Origin: an uncultured bacterium
GTDB taxonomy: Bacteria; Patescibacteriota; Minisyncoccia; Phycocordibacterales; GWA1-40-21
Direction: 5' to 3'
DNA: 64,000 nt
Assembly: GCA_963798465.1 (NCBI GenBank)
Contig: CAWCTC010000001.1
Coordinates: 68,315-132,314, forward strand
Shown one piece after another: positions 7,933-52,700 of the stretch; within the stretch, counting starts at the first letter, position 1, and each line of letters opens with the position of its first letter. Made by a program: the position numbers and the translations under genes. Below the pieces are notes generated by a model. The model searched no databases, was not told the origin of the DNA, and saw only the letters and a list, made by a program, of their open reading frames with translations.

Positions 7933-9102
7933 TTATGCTTTGCTTTTTTCTTCCACTTTCTGCCACTGCATCACTTTCCGTTTACCGACATCGTCAAAAA
8001 ATTCCATGAGAGCGGCAACAGCCGGAGCTGACAATACGATTCCCAAAAATCCGGCAAGCTTTGCACCTATGATAAGAGCTAGAATGACTAATATCGGAGA
8101 AACTCCAACAACTTTTTTTACAACCAAAGGATAAATAAGATGGCTTTCAAATTGCTGAACGATTAAATAAAGACCGAGAACTAGAATCGCTGCTGTAAAT
8201 CCTCCGCCGACAAAAGCAATTATTATCGCAGGAACTGCAGAGATTATCGGACCAAATACCGGAATAATTTCCAACAAGCCTGCAAGCACGGCCAAAAGCA
8301 AAGCGTCTTTTACGCCAAGTATCATAAGTCCCAAATACAAAAGAACTGCAATAATGATTCCAAGTAAAAATTGCCCTTGCATCCATTGGCCGATTTTTCT
8401 CTGAGATCTTTTCCATAAATCGACGACATATTTTTCATTTCTAAGCGGAGTAATCAATTTCAAAAAGTCGGCAACACCATCTTCCTGAACGAGAAAATAA
8501 AAAGACAAAACCAAAATCAAAATAAATGAAAGCAGACCTCCGAAAATCGCGCTGATTATTTTTATGAAATTTGTAGAGAAGTTTGAAGTAATGCTTTGGA
8601 TGCCTTTGATGAGATCTTCCAGTCCAAAAGTTCCCGCTGGAGCTGCCACACTTGTTTGGCCTTGTGTAACAGTCTTCACTAATTGGCCGGTGCCATTTAT
8701 TCCTGCAGACAAAGTATTTACAACTTGTTGAGAAGTTGAAACACTTTCAGTGCTGACATTCAAAGGATTCCAAAGAGATGTCGTTTCCAAATATTGCGGC
8801 AAATCATTCAAAAAAGATGATGCTTCATCGAGTACTGGCGGCACGAAGAAAAATATCAACGCGATAAAGATACTGAATATTCCAACGTATGAAATAATCG
8901 AAGCTGGAAGTCTGCTAACTTTATATTTTTTGAACCATGTAATAAGAGGTTCCATTCCAGATGCAATTACAACTGAAACTAAAACAACAAGAACGACATC
9001 CTTTATATAATAAAGAAACCAAACCAGCAAAACTAATCCTATACCCTTAAATATGGAGCTTGGAGTAATATTTATATTTATTGGCTTGTTTTCGATTTCC
9101 AT
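7933..9102 (-). CDS. AI-2E family transporter (PerM/UPF0118-type permease)
   Basis: 389 aa polytopic membrane protein with family-typical LLAVLAGLLEIIPVFGPIISAVPAIIIAF. Confidence 0.8.
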   Translation of the reverse strand: MEIENKPININITPSSIFKGIGLVLLVWFLYYIKDVVLVVLVSVVIASGMEPLITWFKKYKVSRLPASIISYVGIFSIFIALIFFFVPPVLDEASSFLNDLPQYLETTSLWNPLNVSTESVSTSQQVVNTLSAGINGTGQLVKTVTQGQTSVAAPAGTFGLEDLIKGIQSITSNFSTNFIKIISAIFGGLLSFILILVLSFYFLVQEDGVADFLKLITPLRNEKYVVDLWKRSQRKIGQWMQGQFLLGIIIAVLLYLGLMILGVKDALLLAVLAGLLEIIPVFGPIISAVPAIIIAFVGGGFTAAILVLGLYLIVQQFESHLIYPLVVKKVVGVSPILVILALIIGAKLAGFLGIVLSAPAVAALMEFFDDVGKRKVMQWQKVEEKSKA

Positions 9103-13499: not shown

Positions 13500-14708
13500 T
13501 TAGCTTATCGAACTCGTCAAAGAATAAATAGGTTTTATTACGGCTAACGCAAAAAATCCTACGGCAGTTCCTATGACTACCATAAGCACGGGCTCGATTA
13601 TATCCGACATGTTTTTTGTTTTTTGATCCACGGAATCTTCATAAAATGTCGCCACTTCCAAAAGCATGGCTGGAAGTCTTCCTGTTTCTTCTCCGACGAC
13701 CATCATTTCTCCGACAAATGGAGGGCATAATTTTGTGTTTTCTAAAAATACGCTTGAAATCGTTCCACCTTTTTCAACTTTGCTTTTTGCCGTAGCTAAA
13801 ATAGCCTTAAAATAATCATTTTGTATGACATCTCTTGTTATGGAAATCGATTCTTCATAAGCGACTCCAGAAGACAAAAGCGACGCTATCGTTCTCGTAA
13901 TTCTCGCGGAATTCGTTTCTTTTATCAGTTCGCCGACTACGGGAATCTTCAAAACTATGAAATCAAAAACATGCTTTCCTAGCTTTGAACGAAGAGTAAA
14001 ATATACGCCCAAATAAATAAGCAAGGCTCCGAGCAAAGTCAGCGGAATATTATTTTTCAAAAAGTCGCTCGTGCCGATCAGAACTTTGGTCATAAAGGGA
14101 AGCGGAACGTTCAGATTTGCAAGAGTGGAAGTGATTTGCGGAACGACAAATATCATCATGAGCACGCCGATAACTAGCATCACGGATAATATTACTCCAG
14201 GATATATCATTGCTCCTTTGACCTTTTCTTTTATCTTGTAGCTTCCTTCCATCTGGTTTGCGATAATTTTCAAAGATTCGGATAATTTTCCGGACTCTTC
14301 TCCTGCTTTTACCATCGAAACGAATAATTTTTCAAAAACATCCGGATATTCGGCGCAAGCTTCGCTGAGCGGCTTGCCTTTTCTTATTTCCAAACCCAAA
14401 TCTCCGATGATTCCTCTGAGTTTTTTATTCGTCACTTGATTTTCAAGAATATTCAAACCTTTGGCGAGAGGAAGCCCCGCGTTTATCATTCCGCCCAAAT
14501 TTCTAGCAAAAATTATTTTCTGCAGTTCGGGAACAGAATTAAAAAAAGGAAGGTCTATATCCCATTTTGATTTTATATTTTCAGATGCAGATATCAGAGT
14601 GTCGCCCTGTTCTTTCAACTCTTCATACAAAGCAAATTTATCGGTAGATTCTTTTATACCTTCATACTTTGTGCCATCTTTTTTAATAACCTTAATTTTA
14701 AATTTCAT
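13500..14708 (-). CDS. pilC: type IV pilus assembly platform protein PilC (GspF/T2SS-F family)
   Basis: 402 aa with duplicated T2SSF-type architecture, three TM regions and typical LPLAKGLNILENQ / TGRLPAMLLEVATFYE segments. Confidence 0.9.
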   Translation of the reverse strand: MKFKIKVIKKDGTKYEGIKESTDKFALYEELKEQGDTLISASENIKSKWDIDLPFFNSVPELQKIIFARNLGGMINAGLPLAKGLNILENQVTNKKLRGIIGDLGLEIRKGKPLSEACAEYPDVFEKLFVSMVKAGEESGKLSESLKIIANQMEGSYKIKEKVKGAMIYPGVILSVMLVIGVLMMIFVVPQITSTLANLNVPLPFMTKVLIGTSDFLKNNIPLTLLGALLIYLGVYFTLRSKLGKHVFDFIVLKIPVVGELIKETNSARITRTIASLLSSGVAYEESISITRDVIQNDYFKAILATAKSKVEKGGTISSVFLENTKLCPPFVGEMMVVGEETGRLPAMLLEVATFYEDSVDQKTKNMSDIIEPVLMVVIGTAVGFFALAVIKPIYSLTSSIS

Positions 14709-14978
14709 TTACCCGAGAAAATTTTTGCTAATGAAAAAGTTGTTTAGGACCTTTTTTATGTAATTTCTACCGTATTGTGTTTTCATATATTTTTCTCTAT
14801 TATACGCGTCTTTTGCTATTAATGTAAGCTTCATAATATATAAGTGCAAATGGGACTCTTTTCTTTGTTGAAGCAACTTTTTTGGCATTATGCAATATCA
14901 ATCTAGCTTTAATATCTTTTGTACAACCAGTATACAATTCTCCATTTTTTTACTTTGTATAATATATACATATTGCAT
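14709..14978 (-). pseudogene. GIY-YIG nuclease family gene, degraded paralogue of 16777-17046
   Basis: DNA is near-identical to 16777-17046 but has A7 instead of AAGAAAAA near 14944-14951 (-1) and AGCAAAAGAC instead of AGCAAAGAC (+1). This gives an early TGA after MQYVYIIQSKKMENCILVVQKILKLD. Confidence 0.75.
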
Positions 14979-15003
14979 AATGCATTAGCAAAAACTTTAA
15001 CGG
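14713..15003 (-). mobile_element. ~291-bp inverted-repeat-bounded GIY-YIG cassette, copy 1 (between pilB stop and pilC start)
   Basis: Ends are CCGAGAAAATTTTTGCTAAT (14713-14732) and ATTAGCAAAAACTTTAACGG (14984-15003), 16 of 19 positions complementary. It fills the whole pilB-pilC intergenic space. Confidence 0.55.
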
Positions 15004-15008
15004 GTGAA

Positions 15009-16776
15009 TTATTCCGTCACAACTCTCAAAACTTCCTCGATCGTCGTCATACCTGTAACACATTTGAATATCCCATCTTCAAGCATAGTGAGCATTCCTT
15101 CTTTTTTTGCTTGAACTTCTATTTCCTGCGAAGTCGAACCTTTCATGACGAGATCTCTTATCGCCGGAGTCATTTTTAATGTTTCATGAATTCCGATTCT
15201 TCCGGCATATCCGTCTGGCGCATCAATAGATGCTTTGGCTTTATAAAAATAAATATTTTCCCAATCGTCAGTTTTTGAAATCAGATTTTCATTCCTCAAC
15301 GTTTCCAAAACCCTATTCAAATCGACAATTTTTGCAAGAGAAGCCAATTCCGCTTTGGTCAAAAGATATTTTTCTTTTTCTTTGGTCAATTGTCTGATAA
15401 GCCTCTGAGCCAAAACGATATTTATCGTTGATACGAGAAGAAACGGCTCGATTTTCATATCCATAAGTCTTGGAATCGCTCCGGCGGCGGAATTTGTGTG
15501 CAAAGTCGAGAGCACCATGTGTCCGGTCAAAGCTGCATTCACGGCAAGAGAAGCGGTTTCATCATCTCTGATTTCTCCGACCATGATGATGTCAGGATCC
15601 TGCCTGACAAGCGAACGAAGTCCGTTTGCAAAACTGAATCCTATTTCCGGTTTTACCTGAGTCTGATTTATTCTTGCGACTTGATATTCAATCGGGTCTT
15701 CAATCGTTGCAATATTTACATCGGGAGTATTCAATACTTCCAAAATGGTATAAAGAGTGGTCGTCTTTCCGCTTCCGGTAGGTCCGGTTGTCAGAATCAT
15801 TCCATTCGCTTCTTTCATTGCATCGTGGATTCTTTCCAAATTTATTCCATGAAAACCCATGGATTCCAAAGTGTAAGCTCCGACATTTTCTCTCAGAAGA
15901 CGCATGACAGTTTTTTCTCCGAAATATGTCGGAATGATTGAAACTCTGAAAGAAACTTTTTCTCCATTGATGTCGATTTTGAATCTTCCGTCCTGAGGCA
16001 ATCTTTTTTCATCAAGCTTTAGGTTTGAAAGAACTTTTATCCTGGCAGTTATACTTTCTCCGGCATTTTTTGGAAGAATCATTGCATCATGCAAAAGCCC
16101 GTCGATTCTGTATCTGACAAGAATATCATTTTCCAGACACTCAATATGTATGTCCGAAGCATTCTGCAAAGCTGCGTGTTTCAAAAGAGTTTCTACGATG
16201 CGGATGACCGGAAGATCCTCCGCCATATTTTTCAAAGTTTCTTCGAGAGGTTCGCCTTTATTTCCAATTTCAAGATTTCCCGAGTCTTTCAGAGCTTGAA
16301 CATCTTTCTGTATCAATTCCCCGAACTCAGCTTTCAAACTTTTTTGATATTGGAGAAGCGCGCTTTTTATCGAAGCTGTGTCCGTCAGTCTTGGCAAGAA
16401 TTTTCAATCCGACTTTCTTTTTTATAAATTCTATTTCCGGCAAATCATTTATGTCAAGCATCGCGACTTCCAGAGAATCCGGATTTTTCTTGAAAGCTAC
16501 TATATTATTTTTTCTGGCAAGTGGTTCGGGAATTATCGAAAGCACGGGAAAATCGATTTTTTGATTTTTCAAATCGACAAAAGGAATTCCGGATACATAA
16601 GCCTGCGCTTTACGAAGATCATCGTCGGAAATTTTTCCCTGACTGACTAAAACTTTCTCGGGAGTATCTTTAAGCTTCCCATTTTTTATAAGACTTTCAA
16701 TATCATCATACTCAGTCTTCGTGACAAGACCTGTATCTATTAAAAAATCTTTAAGTTGTTTACTTTCTAGTGCCAT
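15009..16776 (-). pseudogene. pilB: type IV pilus assembly ATPase PilB (GspE family), one frameshift after the N-terminal domain
   Basis: ORF 16327-16776 (T2SSE N-domain) and ORF 15009-16397 (Walker A GPTGSGKTTT, IMVGEIRDDETA, TGHMVLSTLHTN) join as ...KKVGLKIL/PRLTDTASIK. One extra base near 16393-16400 breaks the frame. Confidence 0.9.
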
Positions 16777-17046
16777 TTATCCGAGAAAATTTTTGCTAAT
16801 AAAAAAGTTACTTAGGACCTTTTTGATATAATTTCTACCATATTGTGTTTTCATATATTTTTCTCTATTATACGCGTCTTTGCTATTTATGTAAGCTTCA
16901 TAGTATATAAGTGCAAATGGCGCGCTTTTTTTCGTCGATGTAACTTTTTTGGCATTATGCAATATTAATCTATTTTTTATATCCTTGGTACAACCTGTAT
17001 ATAATTCGCCATTTTTCTTACTTTGTAATACATATAGATATTGCAT
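16777..17046 (-). CDS. GIY-YIG nuclease family protein (UPF0213-like), 89 aa
   Basis: MQYLYVLQSKKNGELYTGCTKDIKNRLILHNAKK...YYEAY...NREKYMK. The stop TAA is immediately followed by the pilB ATG (TAAATG). Confidence 0.8.
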   Translation of the reverse strand: MQYLYVLQSKKNGELYTGCTKDIKNRLILHNAKKVTSTKKSAPFALIYYEAYINSKDAYNREKYMKTQYGRNYIKKVLSNFFISKNFLG

Positions 17047-17071
17047 AATGCGTTAGCAAAAACTTTAACGG
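16781..17071 (-). mobile_element. ~291-bp inverted-repeat-bounded GIY-YIG cassette, copy 2 (directly upstream of pilB)
   Basis: Same terminal inverted repeats as copy 1 (16781-16800 and 17052-17071). DNA-level repeat of 14713-15003. Confidence 0.55.
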
Positions 17072-17178
17072 ATTAATTTTCCTTATTCCTGATAATTATA
17101 TCAGAAAATAATTAAGTTCAACAGCAATTAACAGTTCACGAATTCAGAAGATATTCGGCAATGTAATTTGGCGAATTC

Positions 17179-25693: not shown

Positions 25694-25955
25694 ACTACTA
25701 CCGGCTAAAAGCCGGTAGTTTTGGATAAGACTAAAGTCCGATATTAAATACAAATGCAGACCCATACTCGTGTGTCATTCCCGCGAAGGCGGGAATCCAG
25801 AATTAATAGTGTCGCAGTTATAGGACGGTTGTGCGAGTGACTTCGCTAAGTCAAACCTAGATTCCCGTATTCACGGGAATGACAAATGTCATCCAAAACT
25901 AATCTTAAAAGGACTGCCTGAAGGCGGGAGTTTTGCTACCAAAGGTGGATAATAA
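25694..25955 (+). repeat. ~250-260-bp composite repeat, copy A (immediately after tig stop)
   Basis: Near-identical to 46413-46672. It contains hairpin CTACCGG..CCGGTAG, a 110-bp unit bounded by GTCATTCCCGCGAAGGCGGGAATC and GATTCCCGTATTCACGGGAATGAC (25774-25883), and the 50-nt motif (25809-25856). Confidence 0.9.
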
Positions 25956-36081: not shown

Positions 36082-36127
36082 CGTCGCACTTAAATGACGA
36101 TTGAGCGACGTGATTCCACAAAATCAA
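36082..36127 (+). repeat. 50-nt hairpin motif family, copy B (after yebC)
   Basis: CGTCGCACTTAAATGACGATTGAGCGACGTGATTCCACAAAATCA. Confidence 0.65.
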
Positions 36128-36172
36128 AAAAACCGAGAGATTTTCTCAACATGGAAATTCTTCGGTTTTTTA
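36126..36172 (+). terminator. terminator after yebC
   Basis: A7-CCGAGAGATTTTC...GAAATTCTTCGG-T6 imperfect long hairpin. Confidence 0.55.
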
Positions 36173-36295: not shown

Positions 36296-39200
36296 ATGGA
36301 AAATAAAACACCTCAAACAAAAATAAAACTTCCATATTTTATAATCTCCTGTTTCTTGATGATAATTCTCGCATCCGCGCTCATTTTTATTCCAAAACAG
36401 AATTGGAAGAAAATTTTCAGCTTTAATTTTTTAAATTTTGCCGCAGTTTTTACATCAGCAAGCGGAGGAAATTGGGACAATCCAGCCGTGTGGGGCAATG
36501 CGTATGTCGCTCCAACTCCGTATGACTTGGCCATATCCCCAACAACTGGCGAAATCTATGTCGCTGATAATGGACGAATATTCGTATTGAATCCTGACGG
36601 AACCGCTTCGACGACATATTCGCTAAAATATAATGGAAATGTCGTGGCTACATCAGGCATAGTTTTAAATCAGAACAAGATTTATGTTTCAACAAATCTA
36701 GGAGTAATCTTAGTTCTGAATTCTGATGGCTCAACTTATGCCGCATATGATGGAGGATCATACTCGCCGATAAATCCAAACTCGATTTTTATTTCTAACT
36801 CGGGATATATTTACGCTGCTGATCAAAGTAATAATCGAATAGTTGTGTTGAATCCTGATGGAACCGCCTCAACAACATATCCACTTTCTTTCAGCCCATT
36901 TGCTGTTGCTATTTCAAGTTCAGGCAATATTTATGCATCTGACTTTGCCGGAAAAAAAATTGCTTTGCTGAATCCGAACGGGACTGCTTCAACTACGTAT
37001 GATGGAGGAACTTTTGCTCCGATGTATCCTCAAAATATAACAATATCCAATTCCGGCTATATTTATGTCAGCGATGAAACAAATAACAGAATCGTAGTAT
37101 TGAATCCAGATGGAACTGCTTCAACAACATATGATGGAGGAACTTTTGCTCCAATTAATCCAGAGGGAATAAAAATATCCGCAAATGGAAATATTTATGT
37201 GGCTGACAACACTCATTCAAGAATTGTCGTGTTGAACTCAGATGGAACCGCTTCAACGACATATGAAATAACCCCTACGATAGTAGCCGGCGTAGATTAT
37301 CCGGGAGTAAATGACACTGCAAATATAAGCAATGATATAAAACTTGTTAGCGACGAAAATGTTCGAGACCTAGTGATAGATTCCGGAGGAACTTTGGATT
37401 TAAATGGATATACATTAAATGTTTTCGGCACAATTGATAATCTCGGAACTCTGATTACAAACGGCGGTTCGATTTATCAGATAACATACAGTGATATGAC
37501 CGTTGATTATCCTCTAACTCTCAGCGAGGATACATATGTGAATAATCTTACTCTAGCTTCAGGAGGAACTTTGGATTTGAACGGCTATACAATTTATGTA
37601 AACGGAAACTGGAATAATACTGGAGGCGAGCTTATAAACAACGGCGGAACAGTCGACATGGTTGGAACATCGACACAAAGCATTTTGGGAGGAGAAACTT
37701 TTGAAAATCTTGAAAAAATATCAAATGTTCCATCATCTTTGCTTTTTGATTCTTCAACAACAACGACGATTACAGGAAAATTGACTCTTCAGGGCAATCT
37801 TGATCAGGGTTCGGCAAATCTCCTAACGATTGGCCCGACAGGAGCTCCATATAAATACACAAGTGAAATAGGCGGTTCGGCTCCGGGTCTGGGACAATTC
37901 ATAGTCGCATCATCGGGAGAAATTTATATTTTGGACTCCGACACAAATGGCAATACAAAAATTGATATTTTAAATTCAGACGGAACAGCTTCGACAACAA
38001 TTTCAATACCGGATCTTTCAGGACCGATAGCACTTTCTCAAACCGGAGAAATTTATTATGCAAAAACAAATGACAACAATCATATATATGTCGCCGAACC
38101 TGACGGAAGCGCTTCAACGACAAGCTATACTTTTACTGGAAGCAATGTATATATAAATGGTTTGGCAGTTTCTCCTTCCGGAGAAGTATACGTCGGAGAT
38201 GGAGGAAATAATAAACTTATCATATTAAACCCGGATGGAACGACCGCAACGACAACAAGAATAAATATGAGCGGTGTCAATTCCATAGCACTTTCTCAAA
38301 CTGGAGAAATATATGTTTATACAGGTTCAGATAATATTACAGTTTTAAATTCTGACGGAACTGCAAACACTACATATCATTTCAGCCTGCCGGACTCCAG
38401 CCAAATAGGATATTCCCAAAGAATGATAATTTCACCATCAAATAATATTTACATTGGCGATAGCAGTGGCGACAGGATAGTAACTTTAAATTCTGACGGA
38501 TCATTTGAATCTTCAATTCCATCTTTGGACGGAGTTATTGATATCGGATTGAGTTCATCATCAAAAATCTATGCGAATTCCGGAGGCTATCTGTTCTTAT
38601 TCAATCAAGACGGCTCGCTCGCTTCAAGCTTGCCGACCAGTCTCGAAGGAAATTTCGCAAGGCCGGCAGGAATAGTTCGCGACTCCGCTGGAAATATTTA
38701 TGTGTCGGACTCAAAATTCGAAACTATACAAAAATTCGATCCAAACGGAAACTTCATCAAATTTTTCGATACTTCTGGTCCCGGTGCTCTATCACTGAAA
38801 TTCGGTTATTATTCAGGACAGCTTGCTGTAGATTCTTCGGATGATATTTATGTTACAAGTTCTGATAATAATAAAGTTATAGAATTCAATTCCGATGGCG
38901 AATATTTAGATTCCATATCCATAAATACTCCTCAGGGTGTTGCAGTCGATAGTAGTGGAAATATTTTTGTCTCATCTCAAAGCAGTTCCAATGAAAGCGA
39001 TAATATATTGGTTAAGTTTAATCCAGATTTTTCAATCGCAGCTTCTACAAAGGGACCGTTCGGATTGGCTTCGAATTTCAATCCAACTGGATTAGTCATA
39101 GATCCAACAGGTAAATATATTTATGCCATGGATACCAGCAATGCTCAGATAGTCAAATTAAATCTGTCAGATTTGTCATTTGTATCTGCATCGGACGGAC

Positions 39201-41449
39201 CAGTAGCAAGTCCTTTCGTTTTTCCAATAAGTATGACTTTTGATTCCGCAGGAAATTCATATGTGTCACACCAGACAGGATCGGGTGGATATGTAACAAA
39301 ATTAGATCCAGGTTTCAACTTCGTCGCAGATTTCGGAAAAGTGATATTCGGAGATGGCAGATATGGAGAACTCACTGCTCCAGAACAAATAATGGCTGAC
39401 CCGGAAAATAATATATTCGTCGCGGATGAAGGCGGTATTGTCCAAAAATTTTCACCATCAGCATTTTCTCCTTTCAAAATTTTAAGCACAAATTCAACAA
39501 CAAATACAAACTTCGCTTACTTGTCGGTATCCGGCTCGGATAACATAAGTTCCTTCCCATTTGTTTGTAATGGAATGTGTACAAATGGAGGATACAATTC
39601 GAATTGGACATTCAACAGCAATCAGAATTTGGGAAGAAAATTTAGCAACGGATCTTCTGTCATCACATACACGACAGCAACATCAACCGGTTCCACGACG
39701 ACGCCCATTCTTTCTTCGATAGCTATCGCACCTTTGAATCTTTCTCTGCCGGTAAATTCGACGACAACTTTCGTTTCAACTTTATTGGATCAAAACGGAA
39801 GTCTATTTTCGACCACAACAAACTGGACAACTGCAAGCACTTCAATAGCCACGATAAATGCAAGCGGAACACTTGAGGCGATTTATCCCGGCACCACCAC
39901 AGTTACAGCTTCCGCAGGAACATTGTCGACTTCAACATTAGTCACGGTCACTTATATTCCAGTTTTGACTTCGATAAATATTTCACCACTGAATCCAAAC
40001 GCGATATATGAATCAACAATACAATTTATTTCAAATACACTCGACCAATATGGCAAACCATTTGCCACAACGACAACTTGGACAAGTTCAAGAACTATTG
40101 TTGGAACAATAAATAAAAAAGGATTATTTACTGCGAAGAATAAAAAAGGAACAACTGTAGTCACAGTAACGGCCGGTAAAATATCAACATCAACAACAGT
40201 CAATGTAGCAAAAAAATTCACTGATGAAGGCGTAGCCATAGAAGATGTATCCGTGTCAGCTCCCATGACAACACCTACATCTGCACCAGCAGGAGTTTCA
40301 ACTGGAATAATTCCTTCACAACCAAGTACAACGACCGCATCGACCACTGCAGTTACGGCAACTGAAACAACAACAGCCAGCACGACAAATAATCTCGTTG
40401 AAAGCATAAGAGACAGCATAGTTCAGGGATTGAAAAATTCAATAATTACTCCAGCTGATATACAGACGGTTAAAGAAGTTGTCACAAGTCCTGCAGGAGG
40501 GGTTGTCACAAAAACAGTTACAGCAGCGGGAATTGTCGCAGGTGCCGGCGTTTCAGTATCAGCAGTAGCATTTGCAAATCCAATAACATTTTCAGAACTT
40601 TGGTTGCTTCCTGCAAAATTGTTCGGACTATTGTTAGGAGCTTTGGGTATTCGCAGAAAGCAAAGACCCTGGGGCACCGTTTACGATTCAATCACTAAGC
40701 GTCCTCTTGATCCTGTCTACGTCTCTCTCATAAATGTCGAGACGAACAAAGAAGTGGCAGGAGCAATTACAGATATCGATGGAAGATATGGCTTTCTAGT
40801 TTTGCCGGGCAAATACAGAATTGAAGCCAAGAAAACAAACTACATCGAACCTTCAGTCAAAATGAAAGGAAAATCATTCGATGAAGTCTATAGCGATCTT
40901 TATTTCGGTGAAGATATAAACGTCACTGAAGAAGGCCAAATTATTTCAAAGAATATTCCTATGGATTCTCTTTCATTCGATTGGAATGAATTTGCCAAAA
41001 CTAAGATGAATGTGAATAAGTTTATAAGAGAAAGAGATCTCACATGGGCAAAAATATCTAAAATCGTATTCTTCATCGGTGCCGTAGTTTCATTTATCGC
41101 GGTAATCTTTGCACCAGCTCCTTATAATCTTGCAATAGCAATATTCTATGTATTAGCTTACATACTCAACTACATAGTTTTCAAAAACAAAAAATCTGGA
41201 ACTCTCACGGAAAAATCAACCGGTGCTCCTCTTTCTTTCGCTATCGTAAAGATATTCAGAGAAGGTGAAGATATTCCTCTTACGAAAAAGATTGCTGATA
41301 AGTTTGGAGCTTACTATGCGCTTGTGCCAAAAGGTAAATATTATATCGAAATAGACAAAAAAGAAGGCGATGAAAAATATGATAAAGTATTTAAAACAGA
41401 AGTAATTGATGCAAACAACGGACTTATAAATATGGATTTCATTATATAA
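36296..41449 (+). CDS. giant surface protein (1717 aa): NHL/beta-propeller repeats, Big_2-like Ig domains, Thr-rich linker, C-terminal TM segments with a carboxypeptidase-regulatory-like domain
   Basis: N-terminal TM, then many IYV(A/S)DxxNNRIVVLNPDGTASTTY units. Big_2-like segments include VTASAGTLSTSTLVTV and VTVTAGKISTSTTVNV. The tail has GTVYDSITKRPLDPVYVSLINVETNKEVAGAITDIDGRYGFLVLPGKYRIEA plus TM helices. Confidence 0.75.
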   Translation: MENKTPQTKIKLPYFIISCFLMIILASALIFIPKQNWKKIFSFNFLNFAAVFTSASGGNWDNPAVWGNAYVAPTPYDLAISPTTGEIYVADNGRIFVLNPDGTASTTYSLKYNGNVVATSGIVLNQNKIYVSTNLGVILVLNSDGSTYAAYDGGSYSPINPNSIFISNSGYIYAADQSNNRIVVLNPDGTASTTYPLSFSPFAVAISSSGNIYASDFAGKKIALLNPNGTASTTYDGGTFAPMYPQNITISNSGYIYVSDETNNRIVVLNPDGTASTTYDGGTFAPINPEGIKISANGNIYVADNTHSRIVVLNSDGTASTTYEITPTIVAGVDYPGVNDTANISNDIKLVSDENVRDLVIDSGGTLDLNGYTLNVFGTIDNLGTLITNGGSIYQITYSDMTVDYPLTLSEDTYVNNLTLASGGTLDLNGYTIYVNGNWNNTGGELINNGGTVDMVGTSTQSILGGETFENLEKISNVPSSLLFDSSTTTTITGKLTLQGNLDQGSANLLTIGPTGAPYKYTSEIGGSAPGLGQFIVASSGEIYILDSDTNGNTKIDILNSDGTASTTISIPDLSGPIALSQTGEIYYAKTNDNNHIYVAEPDGSASTTSYTFTGSNVYINGLAVSPSGEVYVGDGGNNKLIILNPDGTTATTTRINMSGVNSIALSQTGEIYVYTGSDNITVLNSDGTANTTYHFSLPDSSQIGYSQRMIISPSNNIYIGDSSGDRIVTLNSDGSFESSIPSLDGVIDIGLSSSSKIYANSGGYLFLFNQDGSLASSLPTSLEGNFARPAGIVRDSAGNIYVSDSKFETIQKFDPNGNFIKFFDTSGPGALSLKFGYYSGQLAVDSSDDIYVTSSDNNKVIEFNSDGEYLDSISINTPQGVAVDSSGNIFVSSQSSSNESDNILVKFNPDFSIAASTKGPFGLASNFNPTGLVIDPTGKYIYAMDTSNAQIVKLNLSDLSFVSASDGPVASPFVFPISMTFDSAGNSYVSHQTGSGGYVTKLDPGFNFVADFGKVIFGDGRYGELTAPEQIMADPENNIFVADEGGIVQKFSPSAFSPFKILSTNSTTNTNFAYLSVSGSDNISSFPFVCNGMCTNGGYNSNWTFNSNQNLGRKFSNGSSVITYTTATSTGSTTTPILSSIAIAPLNLSLPVNSTTTFVSTLLDQNGSLFSTTTNWTTASTSIATINASGTLEAIYPGTTTVTASAGTLSTSTLVTVTYIPVLTSINISPLNPNAIYESTIQFISNTLDQYGKPFATTTTWTSSRTIVGTINKKGLFTAKNKKGTTVVTVTAGKISTSTTVNVAKKFTDEGVAIEDVSVSAPMTTPTSAPAGVSTGIIPSQPSTTTASTTAVTATETTTASTTNNLVESIRDSIVQGLKNSIITPADIQTVKEVVTSPAGGVVTKTVTAAGIVAGAGVSVSAVAFANPITFSELWLLPAKLFGLLLGALGIRRKQRPWGTVYDSITKRPLDPVYVSLINVETNKEVAGAITDIDGRYGFLVLPGKYRIEAKKTNYIEPSVKMKGKSFDEVYSDLYFGEDINVTEEGQIISKNIPMDSLSFDWNEFAKTKMNVNKFIRERDLTWAKISKIVFFIGAVVSFIAVIFAPAPYNLAIAIFYVLAYILNYIVFKNKKSGTLTEKSTGAPLSFAIVKIFREGEDIPLTKKIADKFGAYYALVPKGKYYIEIDKKEGDEKYDKVFKTEVIDANNGLINMDFII

Positions 41450-42433: not shown

Positions 42434-42578
42434 CCTGTAGTGAAATTTCAAATTGTTTTTATATTGCTATATACACAATTTAAAACTTAAGTTTTATTTA
42501 CTAATAATATCTCGACATAAACCAACCCCGCATAAAAACAAAGCAATGATTTGAAATTCTACTACGGGATTCATATAG
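42432..42578 (-). repeat. ~145-bp palindromic element, copy 2, filling the tyrS-ruvC intergenic space
   Basis: Arms at 42432-42467 and 42543-42570. The shared right flank TCATATA includes the tyrS stop codon. The left arm ends in the ruvC ATG. Confidence 0.8.
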
Positions 42579-43765
42579 TAATTTTAACAAACCTCTTCTT
42601 ACCTATTTTAAGAGTAATTCCACTATGTATTTTGAAATTCACATCTGTAATTTTTTCTCCAGAAACCGCATTACTTATCGCATTTTCTGTCACAAGTCTT
42701 CTAAAATCAGTTTTTGAAGAAACAATTTTATTTTCTACTAATAAATCAATCAAAGATTTACCATTCTCAACTTTTATTTCCTCCATATTTTCAGGTAATC
42801 CACCTTTTTGAAAAGTATTAATAAAGTCATTTTCTGCTTTTTTCGCTTCTTTTTCGGAATGATAAAATTTAACAAGCTCATAAGCCAGTTTCATTTTTAT
42901 GTCTTTTGGATTAGTGCCAGATTCTAAATCTTTTTTATATTGTTCAATAATATTTGTATCAACTCTTGTAGTAAAAATAAAATACTTAATAATATAATCA
43001 TCTCTTAATGACAATATTTTTCCATACATATCACTTGGAGAATCAAAAAGATTTACAGTATTTCCCCAACTTGAACTCATTTTTCTACCATCCAAACCTT
43101 CAATAATAGGATTAGTAATAATATTTTGTGGTTCTTGTTTATAATGTCTTTGTAATTCTCTTCCTGCTAATATATTAAATTTTTGATCGCTTCCCCCAAT
43201 TTCAACGTCCGCTTTAATAGCAACGGAATCATATCCTTGCATAAGTGGATACAATAATTCTCGGAGTGATACTCTTTTCCCTGCATCAAGTCTTTTTTTA
43301 ATATTTTCTCTTGAAATAAAGTTACTCAATGAAAAGACATTCGCTTGTTCACAAATTTCATTATATCCAAGTTTTCCAAGCCATTTACTATTGTAGTGAA
43401 TTTCACATTTTTTTATATCGATAATTTTACTAGCTTGAGCTATATAACTTTTCATATTATTTTTTACCTGATCTTTTGAAAGCATTGGCCTTTCACTTTC
43501 TTTATCAGAAGTATCACCAATCACAGCTGTAAAATCACCGATAATCCAAACTATTTTATGTCCTAATTCTTGAAATTGACGTAATTTTAATAAGGGTATA
43601 GACCTGCCTAAATGTATATTTGGACTTGTTGGATCAATCCCTAGTTTTATGCGTAATTGTTTACCACTTTTAAGTTGTTGCTTCTAAATTATCTTTTTCA
43701 ATAATTTCTTCAACTCCACGAGTTAGAATTTCTTGAATTTTCTTTGGATCAGTATCAATTTTCAT
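42571..43765 (-). pseudogene. tyrS: tyrosine--tRNA ligase, one frameshift near codon 30
   Basis: MKIDTDPKKIQEILTRGVEEIIEKDNLEA/QQLKSGKQLRIKLGIDPTSPNIHLGRSIPLLKL... continues into ORF 42571-43524, which has KMSSSWGN (KMSKS-like) and a C-terminal S4-like region. The shift is near 43675. Confidence 0.85.
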
Positions 43766-46412: not shown

Positions 46413-46672
46413 TAAAAATAAACTACTACCGGTAGTTTTGGATAAGACTAAAGTCCGATATTAAATACAAATGCAGACCCATACTCGTGTGTCATTCCCG
46501 CGAAGGCGGGAATCCAGAATTAATAGTGTCGCACTTATATAGGACGATTGTGCGAGTGACTTCGCTAAGTCAAACCTAGATTCCCGTATTCACGGGAATG
46601 ACAAATGTCATCCAAAACTAATCTTAAAAGGACTGCCTGAAGGCGGGAGTTTTGCTCCCAAAGATAGATAAT
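46413..46672 (+). repeat. ~250-260-bp composite repeat, copy B (immediately after PBP1A stop)
   Basis: Near-identical to 25694-25955. Differences I see are an 8-nt loop deletion in the first hairpin, a 2-nt insertion plus 2 substitutions in the central motif, and divergence in the last ~25 nt. Confidence 0.9.
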
Positions 46673-46680
46673 TAAAAAAA

Positions 46681-46800
46681 AAGAATTGGCCGCGCCTTAC
46701 AGGCGCAGTACACCTTTCACATTTTGATTACAAAACGTTCAAGGTCTTACGGAAGCAAAGACTTTTGTTTCCTCACCCTTCGGGCGCTGCCAATTCTTTT
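46681..46800. ncRNA. candidate structured RNA or elaborate bidirectional terminator
   Basis: A 10-bp closing stem AAGAATTGGC/GCCAATTCTT encloses hairpins GCGCC-TTACA-GGCGC, GTCTT-ACGGAAGCA-AAGAC (inside ACAAAA/TTTTGT) and CCC-TTCG-GGG. An A-run lies before it and a T-run after it. Confidence 0.25.
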
Positions 46801-47068: not shown

Positions 47069-48173
47069 TTATCTGTTCATCGGCATCACAAGATATGTGA
47101 ATGTCTTATCAGAGATTCCTTTTATGATAAGCGGTTTATTTATGCCGTTAAAAATCAAAGAAACGCTGTCAGAAGCGATGGAAGTGAAGACAATCGATGA
47201 TATATCTGTAATTAAAATTAACTTCTATATCCTCGCCTTCTATATTTGCATCGATCTTATTTATATTTTCTCCAATATTATTATTTTTTGTCTTTATTTT
47301 TATGGCTTTCTCTCCATTTTTTACGCTTATATTCATCTGATTGAAACTGTCGGAAAAAATATTTGAAATTTTCAATGAATTGATGAGATCCTGCTTCAAT
47401 AAAACAACTTTTGTTTTTTCTTCTTTTGGTAAAATCTGCTTATAATCAGGAAAAACTCCATCGATAACTCTTGAAACAAGATATGTTCCGTCAAAAACGA
47501 AAGAAATTTGATTTTTTGTCGCATTTATTTCTATTTCAGAATCAATATTATCAATAATTTTAAGAATATCCGATGCATTTTTGAAAGGAATTAATATATT
47601 ATTCAAATCCATATTTTTTCTTTGTTTTTATAGTTTTTTCGGCCAGTCTGAATGAATCTGTCGCTACAAATATTAAATTATCTTCATTTGAATATATATA
47701 AACACTCGCAAGCTCGGGTTTTACACTTGATAATGACGAACTATATATTACAGATTTTATTCCATTTACAAGATCTTTTGAATTTATTTTATATGTTTTT
47801 TCATTATCAATCATAGGAACAGTTGGAAAATCTTCCGAAGATAAGTGTTTTTATACTGGCTTCGCTGTTTTGTGTATGATATTTTTAAAGTATTTTCTAC
47901 TGTTTCTAAGATAATATTTTTATCATCACTTAGATTATTCAAAAAACTACTTATTATATTAGCTGGAACGGCAACTTTTCCATTTTCTTCAACTTTTACA
48001 GGAATTGATATTTCCAAACCCAAATCAAGATTTGTTGATCTTATAATTAAATTATTTCCTTTTGTTTCAAATAATAAACAAGACAAAACTGGAAGATTAA
48101 TATTTTTACCAACAATTTTTTCAGCTTTTGATACAGCGAGATGAAGTTTTTCTTTTACACATTCAATTTTCAT
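47069..48173 (-). pseudogene. dnaN: DNA polymerase III beta sliding clamp, three frameshifts
   Basis: ORFs 47811-48173, 47599-47814 and 47169-47612 plus tail ...SIASDSVSLIFNGINKPLIIKGISDKTFTYLVMPMNR ending at TAA 47069-47071. Junctions fall at A5/A6 runs (~47845, ~47610) and a TT run (~47172). SSEDFPTVP is restored after the first shift. Confidence 0.9.
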
Positions 48174-48395
48174 TTTTTTTTTAAATTTATCTATTAATTA
48201 TTATTACAGACCTTTATTTGTTTATAATTATTTTAACTTTATTTTATAGCCTTATTTTAATTTTATTTTTTTAAATAATGTTATTTGTATTGTGTTTAAT
48301 TATTTTATATTATTTTTTATCCCAAACTTATAAACATTTACTCAAACCTATTATACATAAACTTATCAATAACTTATCCACAACTATTTCAACAT
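48174..48395. other. candidate oriC segment (AT-rich unwinding region plus DnaA box) between dnaA and dnaN
   Basis: 48174-48327 is almost pure A/T. A perfect TTATCCACA lies at 48378-48386, beside the degenerate CTTATCAATAAC. AAGTGGATAAAG is also present upstream of dnaA near 49787-49798. Confidence 0.5.
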
Positions 48396-49719
48396 CGAAC
48401 GTATCTGACCTAATTTCTTGAACCAACTCAGGATCGGTTTTTAAATCATTTTTTACCTTTTCATATGAGTGAATTACTGTTGAATGGTCTCTATTTCCAA
48501 CTTTATCTCCAATAGATGGAAATGAAATATCAAAATCTTCTCTCAAAAGATACATAATCACCTGTCTTGGCTTAATTACTTCTTTTTTTCTACCTTTTTC
48601 AAAAATAGTATTCTCTTCTATGCCGTAAAATTCAGAAACAACACGAATAACATCTTTTACTGAAACATTTTTCTTTGGTTTAGAAGTGTTTTTAATCAAT
48701 TCTTTAATTTCATTTATATTGAGTTCTTTATTTTTAAGCTCTGTTTGGCATAAAATAAGGTTTAAAATACCTTCTAATTCTCTAATATTGCCTTCACAGC
48801 ACCGGCAAGGAATTCCACAATATCATTTGAAATATTTAGGTTCATCAGAGAAGCTTTTTTCCTAAAAATCTGAATTCGCGATTCAAAGTCAGGCTTTTGA
48901 ATTTCAACAATCATACCGGCATTAAATCGTGATTTGATGCGTTCTTCTATATCAGGAATGAAATTTGGATGTTTATCTGAAGAAAAAATGAGTTGTTTGC
49001 CGGTGTCGTGAAAACTGTTGAATAAGCTGAAAAATTCTTCTTGCGTTTTTGTTTTTGATGAAAAAAATTGAATATCATCAATAATCAACAAATCATATTT
49101 TTTATATTTATCTTTGAAAGTATTTATATTTCCACTATTCAGCGAATTTATATAATCATTTGCGAATTTTTCCGATGTCAGATAAAAAATTTTTTTATTC
49201 GGATCTGTTGCTTTGAAATAATTCCCCACAGCTTGTATCAGGTGAGTTTTTCCATGCCCTGTGCTTCCAAAAATAAATAAAGGATTATATATCGCGGTTC
49301 TTTTTAAGTATTGCCTGCGATGCAGCATGTGCGAGCTCATTGAAAGGTCCAATAACAAAAGTTTCAAAAGTATATTTAGGATTCAAATTGTCTTCTTTGT
49401 TTATATAAAAATTATTCAATGGAAGCTCGTTTGAATGGATTGTTGTTTCTTTCGCATTAGTTTTTATTTTCATCCTTTGAAACGACATACTCTACATTTC
49501 TTATATGTTCTCCGAAACTTCTTAAATTTTTCAATATATCCTTGTGATATTTATTCATCAGCCAATCTTTTACAAAAACATTCGGCACTCCCAAATAACA
49601 GTGCCGTCTTCTTGTTTGATAATAAAAGTATCTTTAAACCACATGCTGAAGTTGGCCTTTGAGATTCCCAGCTCTATTTGAGCCAGAACATTATTCCATA
49701 GAGTTTTGTTTTCGTTCAT
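48328..49719 (-). pseudogene. dnaA: chromosomal replication initiator DnaA, at least 4 frameshifts
   Basis: MNENKTLWNNVLAQIELGISKANFSMWFKDT.../LGVPNVFVKDWL.../[27 protein letters not shown].../[26 protein letters not shown].../GNIRELEGIL.../..PRQVIMYLLRE..GNRDHSTVIH. The true stop may be TAG near 48393 if a further shift exists. Confidence 0.9.
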
Positions 49720-49886
49720 TGAGATCAATTATAAGTCTCTGCAGTTATTAATAGAAATTATTTTTTGTTTACAAGTTGTGTATAAAAAGTGGATAAAGAA
49801 AAATCAAAAGAATTTTTTTGAAACAACAAATGATATTTTAAATCCGCAGGAAGCAGGCGTTAAGGAAAAAATTTGTATTTAAGCAC

Positions 49887-49915
49887 TTTACATTTTATGT
49901 TTTTTGATTTATACT
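49887..49915 (+). promoter_or_regulatory. sigma70-like promoter of rpmH (TTTACA-17-TATACT), ATG 7 nt after the -10 box
   Basis: TTTACA at 49887-49892, a 17-nt spacer, TATACT at 49910-49915, then ccccttcATG. No SD. Confidence 0.55.
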
Positions 49916-49922
49916 CCCCTTC

Positions 49923-50060
49923 ATGTCAGTCACATATCAACCAAAAAAGAAAAAAAGAGCAAAGACTCACGGTTTTCTTGCAAGAAACAAGAGAAAGTTC
50001 GGAAAAAGAGTGCTTAAAAGAAGAAGACAGCACGGAAGAAAGAAATTAACAACCGTCTAA
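49923..50060 (+). CDS. rpmH: 50S ribosomal protein L34
   Basis: 45 aa, own translation: [45 protein letters not shown]. Below the track cutoff. Confidence 0.95.
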
Positions 50061-50064
50061 AGTA

Positions 50065-50109
50065 CGTCGCACTTATAGGACAGTTGCACGACGTGATTTC
50101 GCAAAATCA
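50065..50109 (+). repeat. 50-nt hairpin motif family, copy C (after rpmH)
   Basis: CGTCGCACTTATAGGACAGTTGCACGACGTGATTTCGCAAAATCA; palindrome TGATTT-CGCA-AAATCA at 50094-50109. Confidence 0.65.
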
Positions 50110-50136
50110 AAAAAAAGGGCTACAAGCCCTTTTTTG
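50109..50136 (+). terminator. hairpin after rpmH (A8-GGGC-TACAA-GCCC-T6)
   Basis: A short GC stem extended by A/T-tract pairing, so probably only a partial terminator before rnpA. Confidence 0.45.
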
Positions 50137-50184
50137 ATTGTTTCAACTTTTGATAATGAATGTATTAAAGTATATAATCAACTG

Positions 50185-50529
50185 ATGCTGAGCCGCAAAT
50201 ATAGAGCAAATAGGCTGGATATAGGAGAGACCATGAAAACCGGAGTATCTATTTTTGGCAGTATTTTATATGCCAAAATCTCTAGGAAAGAAGCCGTAAA
50301 AGCCGGTTTTGCCATTGTAATTTCAAAAAAGAATGAAAAAACTTCAGTTGGCAGACATTTGATTAAAAGAAAAATCAGCAGTTTTATAGAGGAAAATTTG
50401 CCAAAAATGAACAAAAATTTCAAAAAAACGATTGTTTTTTTCCTTAAAAAAACAAATGAAGCGATTAAATATGATGAAGCCAAAAAAGATGTAAAATTTG
50501 TGCTAGAAAAAGCCGGTTTTTACAAATAA
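50185..50529 (+). CDS. rnpA: ribonuclease P protein component
   Basis: MLSRKYRANRLDIGETMKTG...GFAIVISKKNEKTSVGRHLIKRKISSFIEE, following rpmH. TATAAT at 50173-50178 lies 6 nt before the ATG. The track start at 50134 was rejected. Confidence 0.8.
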   Translation: MLSRKYRANRLDIGETMKTGVSIFGSILYAKISRKEAVKAGFAIVISKKNEKTSVGRHLIKRKISSFIEENLPKMNKNFKKTIVFFLKKTNEAIKYDEAKKDVKFVLEKAGFYK

Positions 50530-50596
50530 TTTCTGGACAAAAAAATATACAGGTATAAAATTACAGTAGATGATCTTAAAAACTTAGGAGGTGTTT

Positions 50597-52509: not shown

Positions 52510-52571
52510 GAATGTTGGTTTTAAATTTTAGCTATTCCCCCGATGCTCTGTATCGGACCATATCCTGTATT

Positions 52572-52648
52572 GTCTTTGCGAACGAAGTGAAGCAATCCAG
52601 AATTACATACAATACAAACCTGGATTGCCACGCTACGCTCGCAAAGAC
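52572..52648. repeat. hairpin repeat of the GTC(T/A)TTGCGA(A/G)CGAAG(T/C)GAAGCAA family
   Basis: GTCTTTGCGAACGAAGTGAAGCAATCCAG - 19 nt - CTGGATTGCCACGCTACGCTCGCAAAGAC. The related half-site GTCATTGCGAGCGAAGCGAAGCAA sits inside metG (6677-6700, minus strand). Confidence 0.75.
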
Positions 52649-52700
52649 ATATGAAATAACAAATACCTCGTGTGCTCTGCACCGAGGTAGTTTATTAATA

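Follow-up and report, generated by a model that had tools for sequence, protein, structure and literature searches.

A short repeat downstream of rpmH and other genes

The window analysed here is a 64,000-nucleotide stretch of the genome of an uncultured patescibacterium of the Paceibacteria (assembly GCA_963798465.1, contig CAWCTC010000001.1, positions 68,315 to 132,314), and our subject is a hairpin repeat, one copy of which lies immediately downstream of rpmH. The window encodes the housekeeping genes tig, nusA, polA, tsaE, ruvB, yebC, tyrS, PBP1A, dnaN, dnaA, rpmH, rnpA and yidC, as well as type IV pilus and type IV secretion-like genes. At about 49.7 kb dnaA (minus strand) and rpmH (plus strand) diverge, the GC content is at its lowest and the cumulative GC skew is near its minimum, which places a replication origin within the window. 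The spacer between the two genes (49737–49922), which contains a DnaA-box-like GTGGATAAA and the lowest GC content of the window, is the probable origin. The repeat (copy D) begins 4 nt past the rpmH stop codon (50058–50060) and is followed directly by the terminator that rpmH shares with rnpA.

A first-pass annotation, made from the letters of the window, had described a terminator-associated motif of about 50 nt in five copies, with compensatory base changes in its 3′ hairpin, and had offered two readings of it: a REP-like element recognised as a hairpin, or a stability or processing signal in the 3′ untranslated region (UTR). All five copies were found where they had been placed, on the plus strand (copies A to E, Table 1), and the hairpin variants TGATTT/AAATCA, TGATTC/GAATCA and TGACTT/AAGTCA are exactly as quoted. 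We likewise recovered the single hairpin mismatch of the yebC copy (a C.A pair in TGATTC-CACA-AAATCA), the A-run and GC hairpin directly after three copies, and the inclusion of two copies in GTCATTCCCG...CGGGAATGAC units. The description of the 29.5-kb copy as truncated did not hold, as some 50 inserted nt (29446–29496) divide what is otherwise a complete copy. Its 5′ part (19.6 bits, E 0.0014, model R2) is near-identical to an intact copy in a related genome (locus L023, 11239–11285), and its 3′ part is followed by an A-run and hairpin at 29526–29562. The orthologue at 9006–9111 of L001 has U.G at one pair.

A sixth copy (F), on the minus strand, adds to these five. It is decayed: an internal deletion of about 15 nt took the 3′ arm of the first stem and the 5′ arm of the second hairpin, and the loop pattern still matches both this copy and its orthologue in L001. 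Copy F lies 8 nt past the stop codon of an open reading frame (ORF; 30509–31573, minus strand) and just before an A-run and terminator (30442–30470). The window thus holds a modest number of copies, six to seven in 64 kb, at unrelated intergenic sites and all with hairpins; they begin 4–10 nt past stop codons, directly before terminators. The pattern of the 3′ hairpin matched the window five times versus 0.29 expected, and none of 100 shuffles reached five; the pattern of the 5′ half matched twice versus 0.00 expected. A covariance model built from eight copies gave scores of 62–72 bits (E 1e-15 to 1e-17) for the four full window copies and of 23 bits for the 29.5-kb copy.

Table 1. Positions of the repeat copies, their parts and the adjoining elements in the window
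Feature	Position	Strand	Remarks
Copy D (the copy first flagged)	50065-50109	+	covariance model 72 bits, E 1e-17
Copy D, stem 1	50065-50072 paired with 50086-50093, loop 50073-50085	+	
Copy D, hairpin 2	50094-50099 paired with 50104-50109, loop 50100-50103	+	
Bidirectional intrinsic terminator, rpmH/rnpA	50110-50135	strand-neutral	A-run, GGGC...GCCC hairpin, T-run
Copy C	36082-36126	+	68 bits; 9 nt past yebC stop codon; followed by terminator 36127-36171
Copy A	25809-25856	+	subfamily II, hairpin 2 TGACTT-CGCT-AAGTCA; covariance model 64.2 bits
Copy B	46526-46575	+	twin of copy A; covariance model 62.6 bits
Copy E, 5′ part	29417-29445	+	CATCGCGT-CTATATGACTT-ACGCGAC, stem 1 of G-type subfamily; model R2
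Copy E, 3′ part	29497-29525	+	GTGCGATA and hairpin 2 TGATTC-CGCA-GAATCA; 23-24 bits
Copy F, decayed	30471-30500	-	CGCGCTTAAATGATGGTTGCACAAAATCGA; partial model match, 12.6-13.5 bits
Mosaic unit with copy A, about 250 bp, after tig stop codon	25694-25955	+	97% identity to 46429-46672
Second mosaic unit, with copy B	46423-46678	+	empty site in L006
NTS/SRM-type hairpin, left flank of copy A	25773-25800	+	TGTCATTCCCGCGAAGGCGGGAATCCAG; SRM pattern
NTS/SRM-type hairpin, right flank of copy A, inverted	25857-25884	-	
NTS/SRM-type hairpin, left flank of copy B	46490-46517	+	
NTS/SRM-type hairpin, right flank of copy B	46576-46603	-	

Both hairpins covary

The repeat unit spans 44–49 nt and consists of two adjoining hairpins with no spacer between them. 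The 5′ half, which the first-pass annotation had left undescribed, forms an 8-bp GC-rich stem, CGTCGCAC/GTGCGACG, around a 13-nt loop (stem 1); across all forms of the repeat this loop measures 11–13 nt and keeps a TAnAnGAC core. Hairpin 2 has 6 bp and a C-R-C-W tetraloop, the element ends in TCA and the next base is A. On either strand the consensus adopts a fold of two hairpins.

Three forms can be told apart. Form I (TGATTT-CGCA-AAATCA in hairpin 2) stands alone, and form II (TGACTT-CGCT-AAGTCA) is always nested between inverted repeats; the flanking pair is NTS-like in the window, L010 and L011, and GC-rich in L012. Form G, at L023, was found by the covariance model and not by a pattern; it reads CATCGCGT-CTAGACGACTT-ACGCGATG followed by TGATTC-CGCA-GAATCA. 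Relative to form I, three pairs of stem 1 and one of hairpin 2 are changed on both sides in form G, and another pair of hairpin 2 in form II.

In a 14-copy alignment that had been fitted to the structure of the model, base pairing holds in 93.8% of cells, and double compensatory changes occur at five of the 14 pairs: G-C to A-U, A-U to G-C and C-G to U-A in stem 1, and U-A to C-G at two positions in hairpin 2. None of 500 shuffles reached five pairs, and slid registers showed zero double changes. This larger set of copies thus exceeds both controls, so that the selection on a hairpin claimed from the window alone is supported and extends to the second stem. The compensatory changes identify the repeat as a structured nucleic-acid element on one or other strand. 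The 13 pattern-derived copies by themselves give double changes at one pair, so the covariation of stem 1 rests on one divergent subfamily, form G.

The mismatches bear on which strand folds. Stem cells that do not pair are mostly A.C on the sense strand (nine cells at three pairs), corresponding to G.U or G.T on the opposite strand; sense-strand wobbles number two to three cells at two pairs, and the bottom-strand DNA folds of variant copies are better by 1.4–1.9 kcal/mol. These counts lean towards the bottom strand, on too few events to decide the folded strand, and pull against the orientation evidence described below.

Around copy D (50104–50139, and also at 940–990 of L006) the 3′ arm of hairpin 2 and the A-run form AATCAAAAAAGGGC, which is complementary to GCCCTTTTTTGATT past the rpmH terminator and yields an extended stem competing with hairpin 2. 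The sequence TTTTTTGAT after this terminator is kept in relatives that have no motif.

Gain and loss between relatives

The precise boundaries of a stand-alone copy are given by the rpmH site. In L020, L022 and L023 the bases TAC are followed directly by AAAAA and the terminator, versus TAC, 44 nt, AAAAAAA and the terminator in the window. The inserted bases are 50066–50109, exactly between TAC and the A-run, and the comparison of filled and empty sites reveals zero target duplication and zero terminal inverted repeats. The rpmH terminator is ancestral and lies outside the repeat.

The larger units that contain copies A and B also come and go. The second mosaic unit is an insertion that separates the PBP1A stop region (TAATAAAAATAAA) from the A-run of the native terminator; L006, a Patescibacteria metagenome-assembled genome (MAG) 95% identical to the window, has no such unit and runs directly from the stop region into the terminator, its empty site reading TAATAAAAATAAAAAGAATTGGCCGCGCCC... 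In L001, a close strain whose tig protein is identical, a different sequence takes the place of the copy A unit. The loop of the PBP1A terminator hairpin itself contains an insertion of about 80 bp (46699–46780); it is missing from L006, and neither the window nor the fetched loci contain a second copy.

Among syntenic relatives (L020, L022, L023 and L024, YidC 76–84% identical) we found no copy after yebC, PBP1A or rpmH, and the yebC 3′ regions of L020, L022 and L024 contain no orthologue of copy C. The conservation at orthologous sites that would mark a gene-specific cis-regulatory RNA is therefore missing in all four, and such a role is weakened. L023 in turn carries its copy after jag, where the window has none. 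At this position the window (52560–52655) has a palindromic element, GTCTTTGCGAACGAAGTGAAGCAATCCAG ... CTGGATTGCCACGCTACGCTCGCAAAGAC, an inverted hairpin pair ending in TCCAG, as the NTS hairpins do.

(T)TAC precedes five of 12 copies, and every copy ends in TCAA. The 5′ flanks are otherwise varied (GTA, TTA, ATA, TAT, TTG, CAG and others), and TAC alone recurs, at the same five of 12. In L004, L005, L007, L008 and L013 the motif ends 0–6 nt before the next ATG, with no terminator. The label "terminator-associated" is accordingly accurate for this genome and not as a general trait, given the three relatives that have the rpmH terminator with no motif and the copies in other MAGs that abut an ATG. 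Since relatives keep the terminators without the motif, the association reflects where insertions land or survive here. For annotation, this means that the motif should not be taken as part of a terminator or as a regulatory leader of the adjoining genes.

Flanking hairpins of the NTS type

Copies A and B lie in one repeat of about 250 bp (97% identical over 46429–46672) and therefore represent a single sequence lineage with two insertion events. This mosaic unit comprises, in order, a terminator-like hairpin, a forward NTS-type hairpin, the motif, a reverse NTS-type hairpin and a tail, so that copy A sits between two inverted NTS-like hairpins. Within the flanking hairpins GTCATTCCCGCGAAGGCGGGAATCCAG matches the Neisseria NTS consensus CGTCATTCCCGCGMAVGCGGGAATCYRG, which extends dRS3, except at the first base (PMC11893778). 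The published SRM pattern, HGTCWYN(0-2)YYVSBRHN(0-5)WNVSBRGN(0-2)RNCYNB, matched the window five times versus 0.1 expected; all five matches are GTCATTCCCG hairpins and none overlaps the 44-nt motif, so the pattern describes the flanking hairpins alone. Judged by sequence, then, it is the flanking GTCATTCCCG hairpins that correspond to the truly known repeat (NTS/dRS3, the Ssn-related motif).

Small GIY-YIG nucleases of the newly described Ssn family (cd10448) bind and cut such repeats as single-stranded DNA only, and depend on the sequence of the hairpin as well as on its presence (PMC11893778). Patescibacteria are unmentioned in the text of that paper, which does not report this known repeat from the phylum. 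Further hairpins of this type occur at 28740–28767 (plus strand) and 28787–28813 (minus strand), in L010 and L011, and at 1271–1298 of L020. They form inverted pairs with varied inner sequence and are absent at the same sites in close strains; L001, for instance, has no pair corresponding to 28740–28813. This behaviour suggests a mobile system resembling the Neisseria intergenic mosaic elements (NIMEs) in a genome of the candidate phyla radiation (CPR). The composite of about 113 bp, made of repeat, motif and inverted repeat, is 84–85% identical among the window, L010 and L011. Its match to Wolbachia WsnRNA46 in Rfam (31.9 versus a threshold of 65.3) involves the outer NTS arms only.

Orientation and distribution

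Of the 14 loci with a determinable neighbour, 12 have the motif in the direction of the upstream gene, and copy E and L011 depart from this rule. Relative to oriC, copy D is found on the right and the other five copies on the left, A, B, C and E on the strand of copy D and F on the opposite one. Copies A, B, C, D and F share no single orientation relative to replication. Orientation therefore tracks transcription and not replication.

Exact-pattern scans found five loci in a one-genome-per-species collection and seven in a metagenome collection. The scan patterns held most of the 5′ half fixed, and consequently the 3′ hairpin region alone is an unbiased sample in these copies. All tested carriers belong to one related lineage: L003 has a PilC 70% identical to that of the window, and the MAG with L004 and L007 (CAZPLP01) has a YidC 82% identical and the gene order of the window. 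These ties make the repeat lineage-specific, and an initial idea of conservation across CPR classes was dropped. CAZPLP01, which also contributes L020, is titled Candidatus Saccharibacteria; the named homologues of the window YidC are from Paceibacterota, and by this comparison the Saccharibacteria label is probably wrong.

We found zero real matches to the motif in viral contigs, zero in plasmid records and one chance match in phage records, and a phage or plasmid origin was set aside. Rfam 15 gave no window matches at the gathering threshold, and near the motif only chance-level matches below it. The motif sequence was not found in the literature searched. Past the motif, L003 (3005–3024) and L004 (7771–7790) share ATGCTTAATTTATTTAAAAARATA, immediately in L004 and 47 nt further on in L003; it opens otherwise unrelated ORFs at the two loci and may be a further small module.

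Comparison with known systems

Like the REP/BIME-RAYT elements, the motif is a short extragenic hairpin repeat found past stop codons and near terminators, is dispersed at unrelated genes, varies between strains and forms mosaics with other repeats; recognition through structure and sequence together, a property of REP elements, is what we propose for it. Unlike them, it consists of two different adjoining hairpins, occurs as single copies and not as inverted pairs, is low in copy number and has no conserved GTAG-like 5′ tetranucleotide, and no RAYT gene was found in the window.

The resemblance to NTS/dRS3/NIME (PMC11893778) resides in the flanks: the hairpins around A and B and those in L010 and L011 fit both the consensus and the SRM pattern, and the composite of about 113 bp has NIME architecture. 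The 44-nt motif itself fails the SRM pattern, and most of its copies stand alone.

With the PATEs of IS200/IS605 the motif shares the absence of terminal inverted repeats and of target duplication, hairpins as features and precise insertion. The (T)TAC before five of 12 copies and the TCAA at the ends of all correspond to the IS608 cleavage tetranucleotides, a likeness that is a lead only. Its size, however, is far below that of a PATE, the two hairpins are dissimilar and stand at the very ends, not subterminally with guide sequences, the orientation does not follow replication, and no TnpA gene was seen in the window. Stem 1, with about 8 GC-rich base pairs and an 11–13-nt loop containing a TA...AC core, presumably resembles the nick hairpins of HUH rolling-circle origins, as in CRESS viruses and rolling-circle plasmids. 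Unlike those origins, the motif is chromosomally dispersed and has a second hairpin attached, and no Rep gene was found in the window. Nor is it a classical miniature inverted-repeat transposable element, as its ends, CGTCGCAC... and ...AAAATCA, are not terminal inverted repeats and there is no duplication. Compared with intrinsic terminators, it lies directly 5′ of an A-run, hairpin and T-run here, but has itself no U-run.

Interpretation

On balance, the motif is probably a lineage-specific, non-autonomous mobile hairpin element of the REP/PATE type that is carried in 3′ UTRs. The family is new, and the kind of element is already known. REP-like is the better of the two readings in the first-pass annotation: it is borne out by sporadic insertions that are absent from orthologous sites, and falls short in that no RAYT or other partner enzyme was found among the roughly 40 window proteins, for which reason REP membership is not established.

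In the proposed mechanism, an enzyme whose gene lies in another part of the genome would act in trans and recognise the single-stranded element through its folded stems and loop sequence; a nuclease or transposase specific for single strands is the likeliest candidate. The enzyme would place a copy precisely and without target duplication in AT-rich DNA just past a stop codon, often at the 5′ foot of a terminator or in the centre of another hairpin repeat. Copies would survive mainly when oriented into the 3′ UTR of the upstream gene, travelling in its transcript, so that the orientation rule would arise by selection. By analogy with Ssn, the flanking hairpins and the small GIY-YIG genes of the window may be counted towards this reading.

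Several observations weigh on the other side. Pfam scans of the roughly 40 window proteins identified no transposase, HUH protein or relaxase that could be the partner enzyme. The 89-aa GIY-YIG genes are flanked by neither the motif nor NTS hairpins. Copy D provides the single precise empty/filled pair for a stand-alone copy, and the relatives compared are other species. Copy density is low, with 0–1 per 14–20 kb in relatives. The covariation of stem 1 comes from one divergent subfamily and few evolutionary events, the pairs were counted in an alignment already fitted to the model, and the conservation of the 5′ half in the collection copies is partly an ascertainment artefact. Finally, the strong co-orientation with transcription is equally predicted by an RNA function.

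It is this orientation rule that keeps an RNA function a serious rival. The motif could be a cis-acting RNA module of 3′ UTRs or intercistronic regions, whose two stacked stem-loops would shield the upstream mRNA against 3′ exonucleases, mark a processing site or modulate the adjacent terminator; it would be spread by mobility and kept by selection. We regard this as unlikely, though less so than any other alternative. It would account for the 12 of 14 co-oriented loci, including copy F on the opposite strand, for the placement of copies 4–10 nt past stop codons before terminators or 0–6 nt from the next ATG, and for the covariation of both stems; at copy D the 3′ arm and A-run are complementary to the GATT past the terminator T-run, which offers an alternative extended stem. 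However, copies are absent at orthologous sites in close relatives that have the same genes and terminator, the adjoining genes are functionally unrelated, and the conservation of the primary sequence, which extends to the loops, goes far beyond what a nuclease barrier requires. The mismatches are mostly A.C on the strand that is transcribed as sense, and copy E and the copy at L011 are antisense to their neighbours.

More speculatively, and in our estimate improbably, CPR bacteria could possess an undescribed system for mobilising single-stranded DNA, of which the unit would be the minimal substrate. Stem 1 could then be an origin-like nick hairpin and hairpin 2 a specificity hairpin stacked on it, and insertion could be coupled to transcription, into the exposed non-template strand at the 5′ feet of terminators and the centres of hairpin repeats. 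In a variant of this idea, a motif abutting an ATG could create a processing site giving leaderless mRNAs. If true, this would add a new kind of mini-transposon to genomes regarded as nearly free of mobile DNA.

Slightly less probable still is that, by analogy with NTS, the motif is a single-stranded DNA recognition site used by the host, with a site-specific nuclease cutting incoming or exposed single strands at or near it and so tuning recombination after DNA uptake. The nesting of the motif with hairpins of the NTS/SRM pattern in the window, L010 and L011 would fit such a role, as would the requirement of Ssn for single-stranded DNA with both hairpin and sequence (PMC11893778), the 89-aa GIY-YIG genes that are present in the window and widespread in related genomes, and the type IV pilus genes. 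The motif, however, fails the SRM pattern, the variant subfamily loses the CGTC start, and its density is far below that of uptake sequences or NTS in Neisseria. The GIY-YIG genes, flanked by neither repeat, encode a protein whose best solved relatives are UPF0213 proteins, with weak E-values. Nor did a link between these genes and the motif emerge: the motif does not flank them, and a homologue found on 50 contigs turned out to be one locus sampled repeatedly.

A double-stranded operator, or a pair of them, for dimeric DNA-binding proteins is very unlikely. The 3′ half would be a 16-bp palindrome, TGATTTCGCAAAATCA is near-perfect in this respect, and two helical turns separate the arms of stem 1. 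But the complementary arm changes at five pairs are those predicted by base pairing and not by a fixed protein–DNA code, the copies are located after genes and not in promoters, no properly spaced sigma-70-like hexamers were seen by eye within the motif, and the distribution among relatives is sporadic. Least credible of all is that the copies are no family but chance similarities or fragments of one recent duplication: the latter holds for A and B, which are part of one duplicated 250-bp segment, but not for C, D, E and F with their unrelated flanks, chance predicts 0–0.3 matches, and the unit is present in at least eight other contigs from other samples.

Other candidates were rejected on specific grounds. 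ARAGORN found no tRNA in the window and there are no T-arm-like features, as a tRNA or tmRNA integration scar would have. A sigma-70 promoter lacks a hexamer pair with 16–18-nt spacing on either strand (by eye). The likeness of CGTCGCACTTATAGGAC to T7-type promoters needs a 1-nt gap and breaks down in several copies, and the window yielded no phage-type polymerase. As a micro-ORF or N-terminal extension the motif has an open frame, but the GTG is lost in half of the copies and A and B are frameshifted. The 3′ half misfits an IHF site (WATCAANNNNTTR), and the R′ and R″ boxes of an integron attC site are missing from the motif.

Genomes of CPR/Patescibacteria, about 0.7 Mb in this case, are regarded as streamlined and repeat-poor. 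At least two interacting hairpin-repeat families are nevertheless gained and lost between 95%-identical strains of this lineage, which points to single-strand DNA transactions, plausibly tied to a DNA-uptake lifestyle, as a source of strain variation. The motif is also a compact strain-typing marker and nominates sequence/enzyme pairs as possible new tools specific for single-stranded DNA.

Other features of the window

The ORF of the 89-aa single-domain GIY-YIG nuclease lies at 16777–17046 (minus strand; Pfam 4e-14), with a decayed duplicate at 14709–14937 (minus strand). Gene and duplicate each lie within a repeat of about 320 bp (16760–17078 and 14692–15010, respectively), and these repeats end exactly at the start codon of the next gene, the N-terminal part of pilB in one case and pilC in the other. 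Homologues are common in related MAGs, where one abuts pheS. The ORF looks like a small mobile gene.

A number of essential genes appear as two to four separate ORFs: polA (26280–28732), dnaN (47169–48173), dnaA (48328–49735), ruvB (34115–34701) and rnpA (about 50234–50530). They are intact in L020, L022, L023 and L024, and A-runs differ in length from those in L006, which suggests homopolymer assembly errors rather than pseudogenes.

The gene for a 1717-aa NHL-repeat protein (36296–41449) lies between yebC and ruvC and is absent there in L020, L022 and L024; motif copies as attachment repeats around this gene were ruled out, as its far end has no copy. A 58-nt repeat, 95% identical, has one copy upstream of tsaE (29351–29408) and the other upstream of ruvC, where tyrS ends (42532–42589). 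The minus-strand ORF that precedes copy F, which has no Pfam match, contains six to seven tandem units of 42 bp (14 codons) at 31170–31493.

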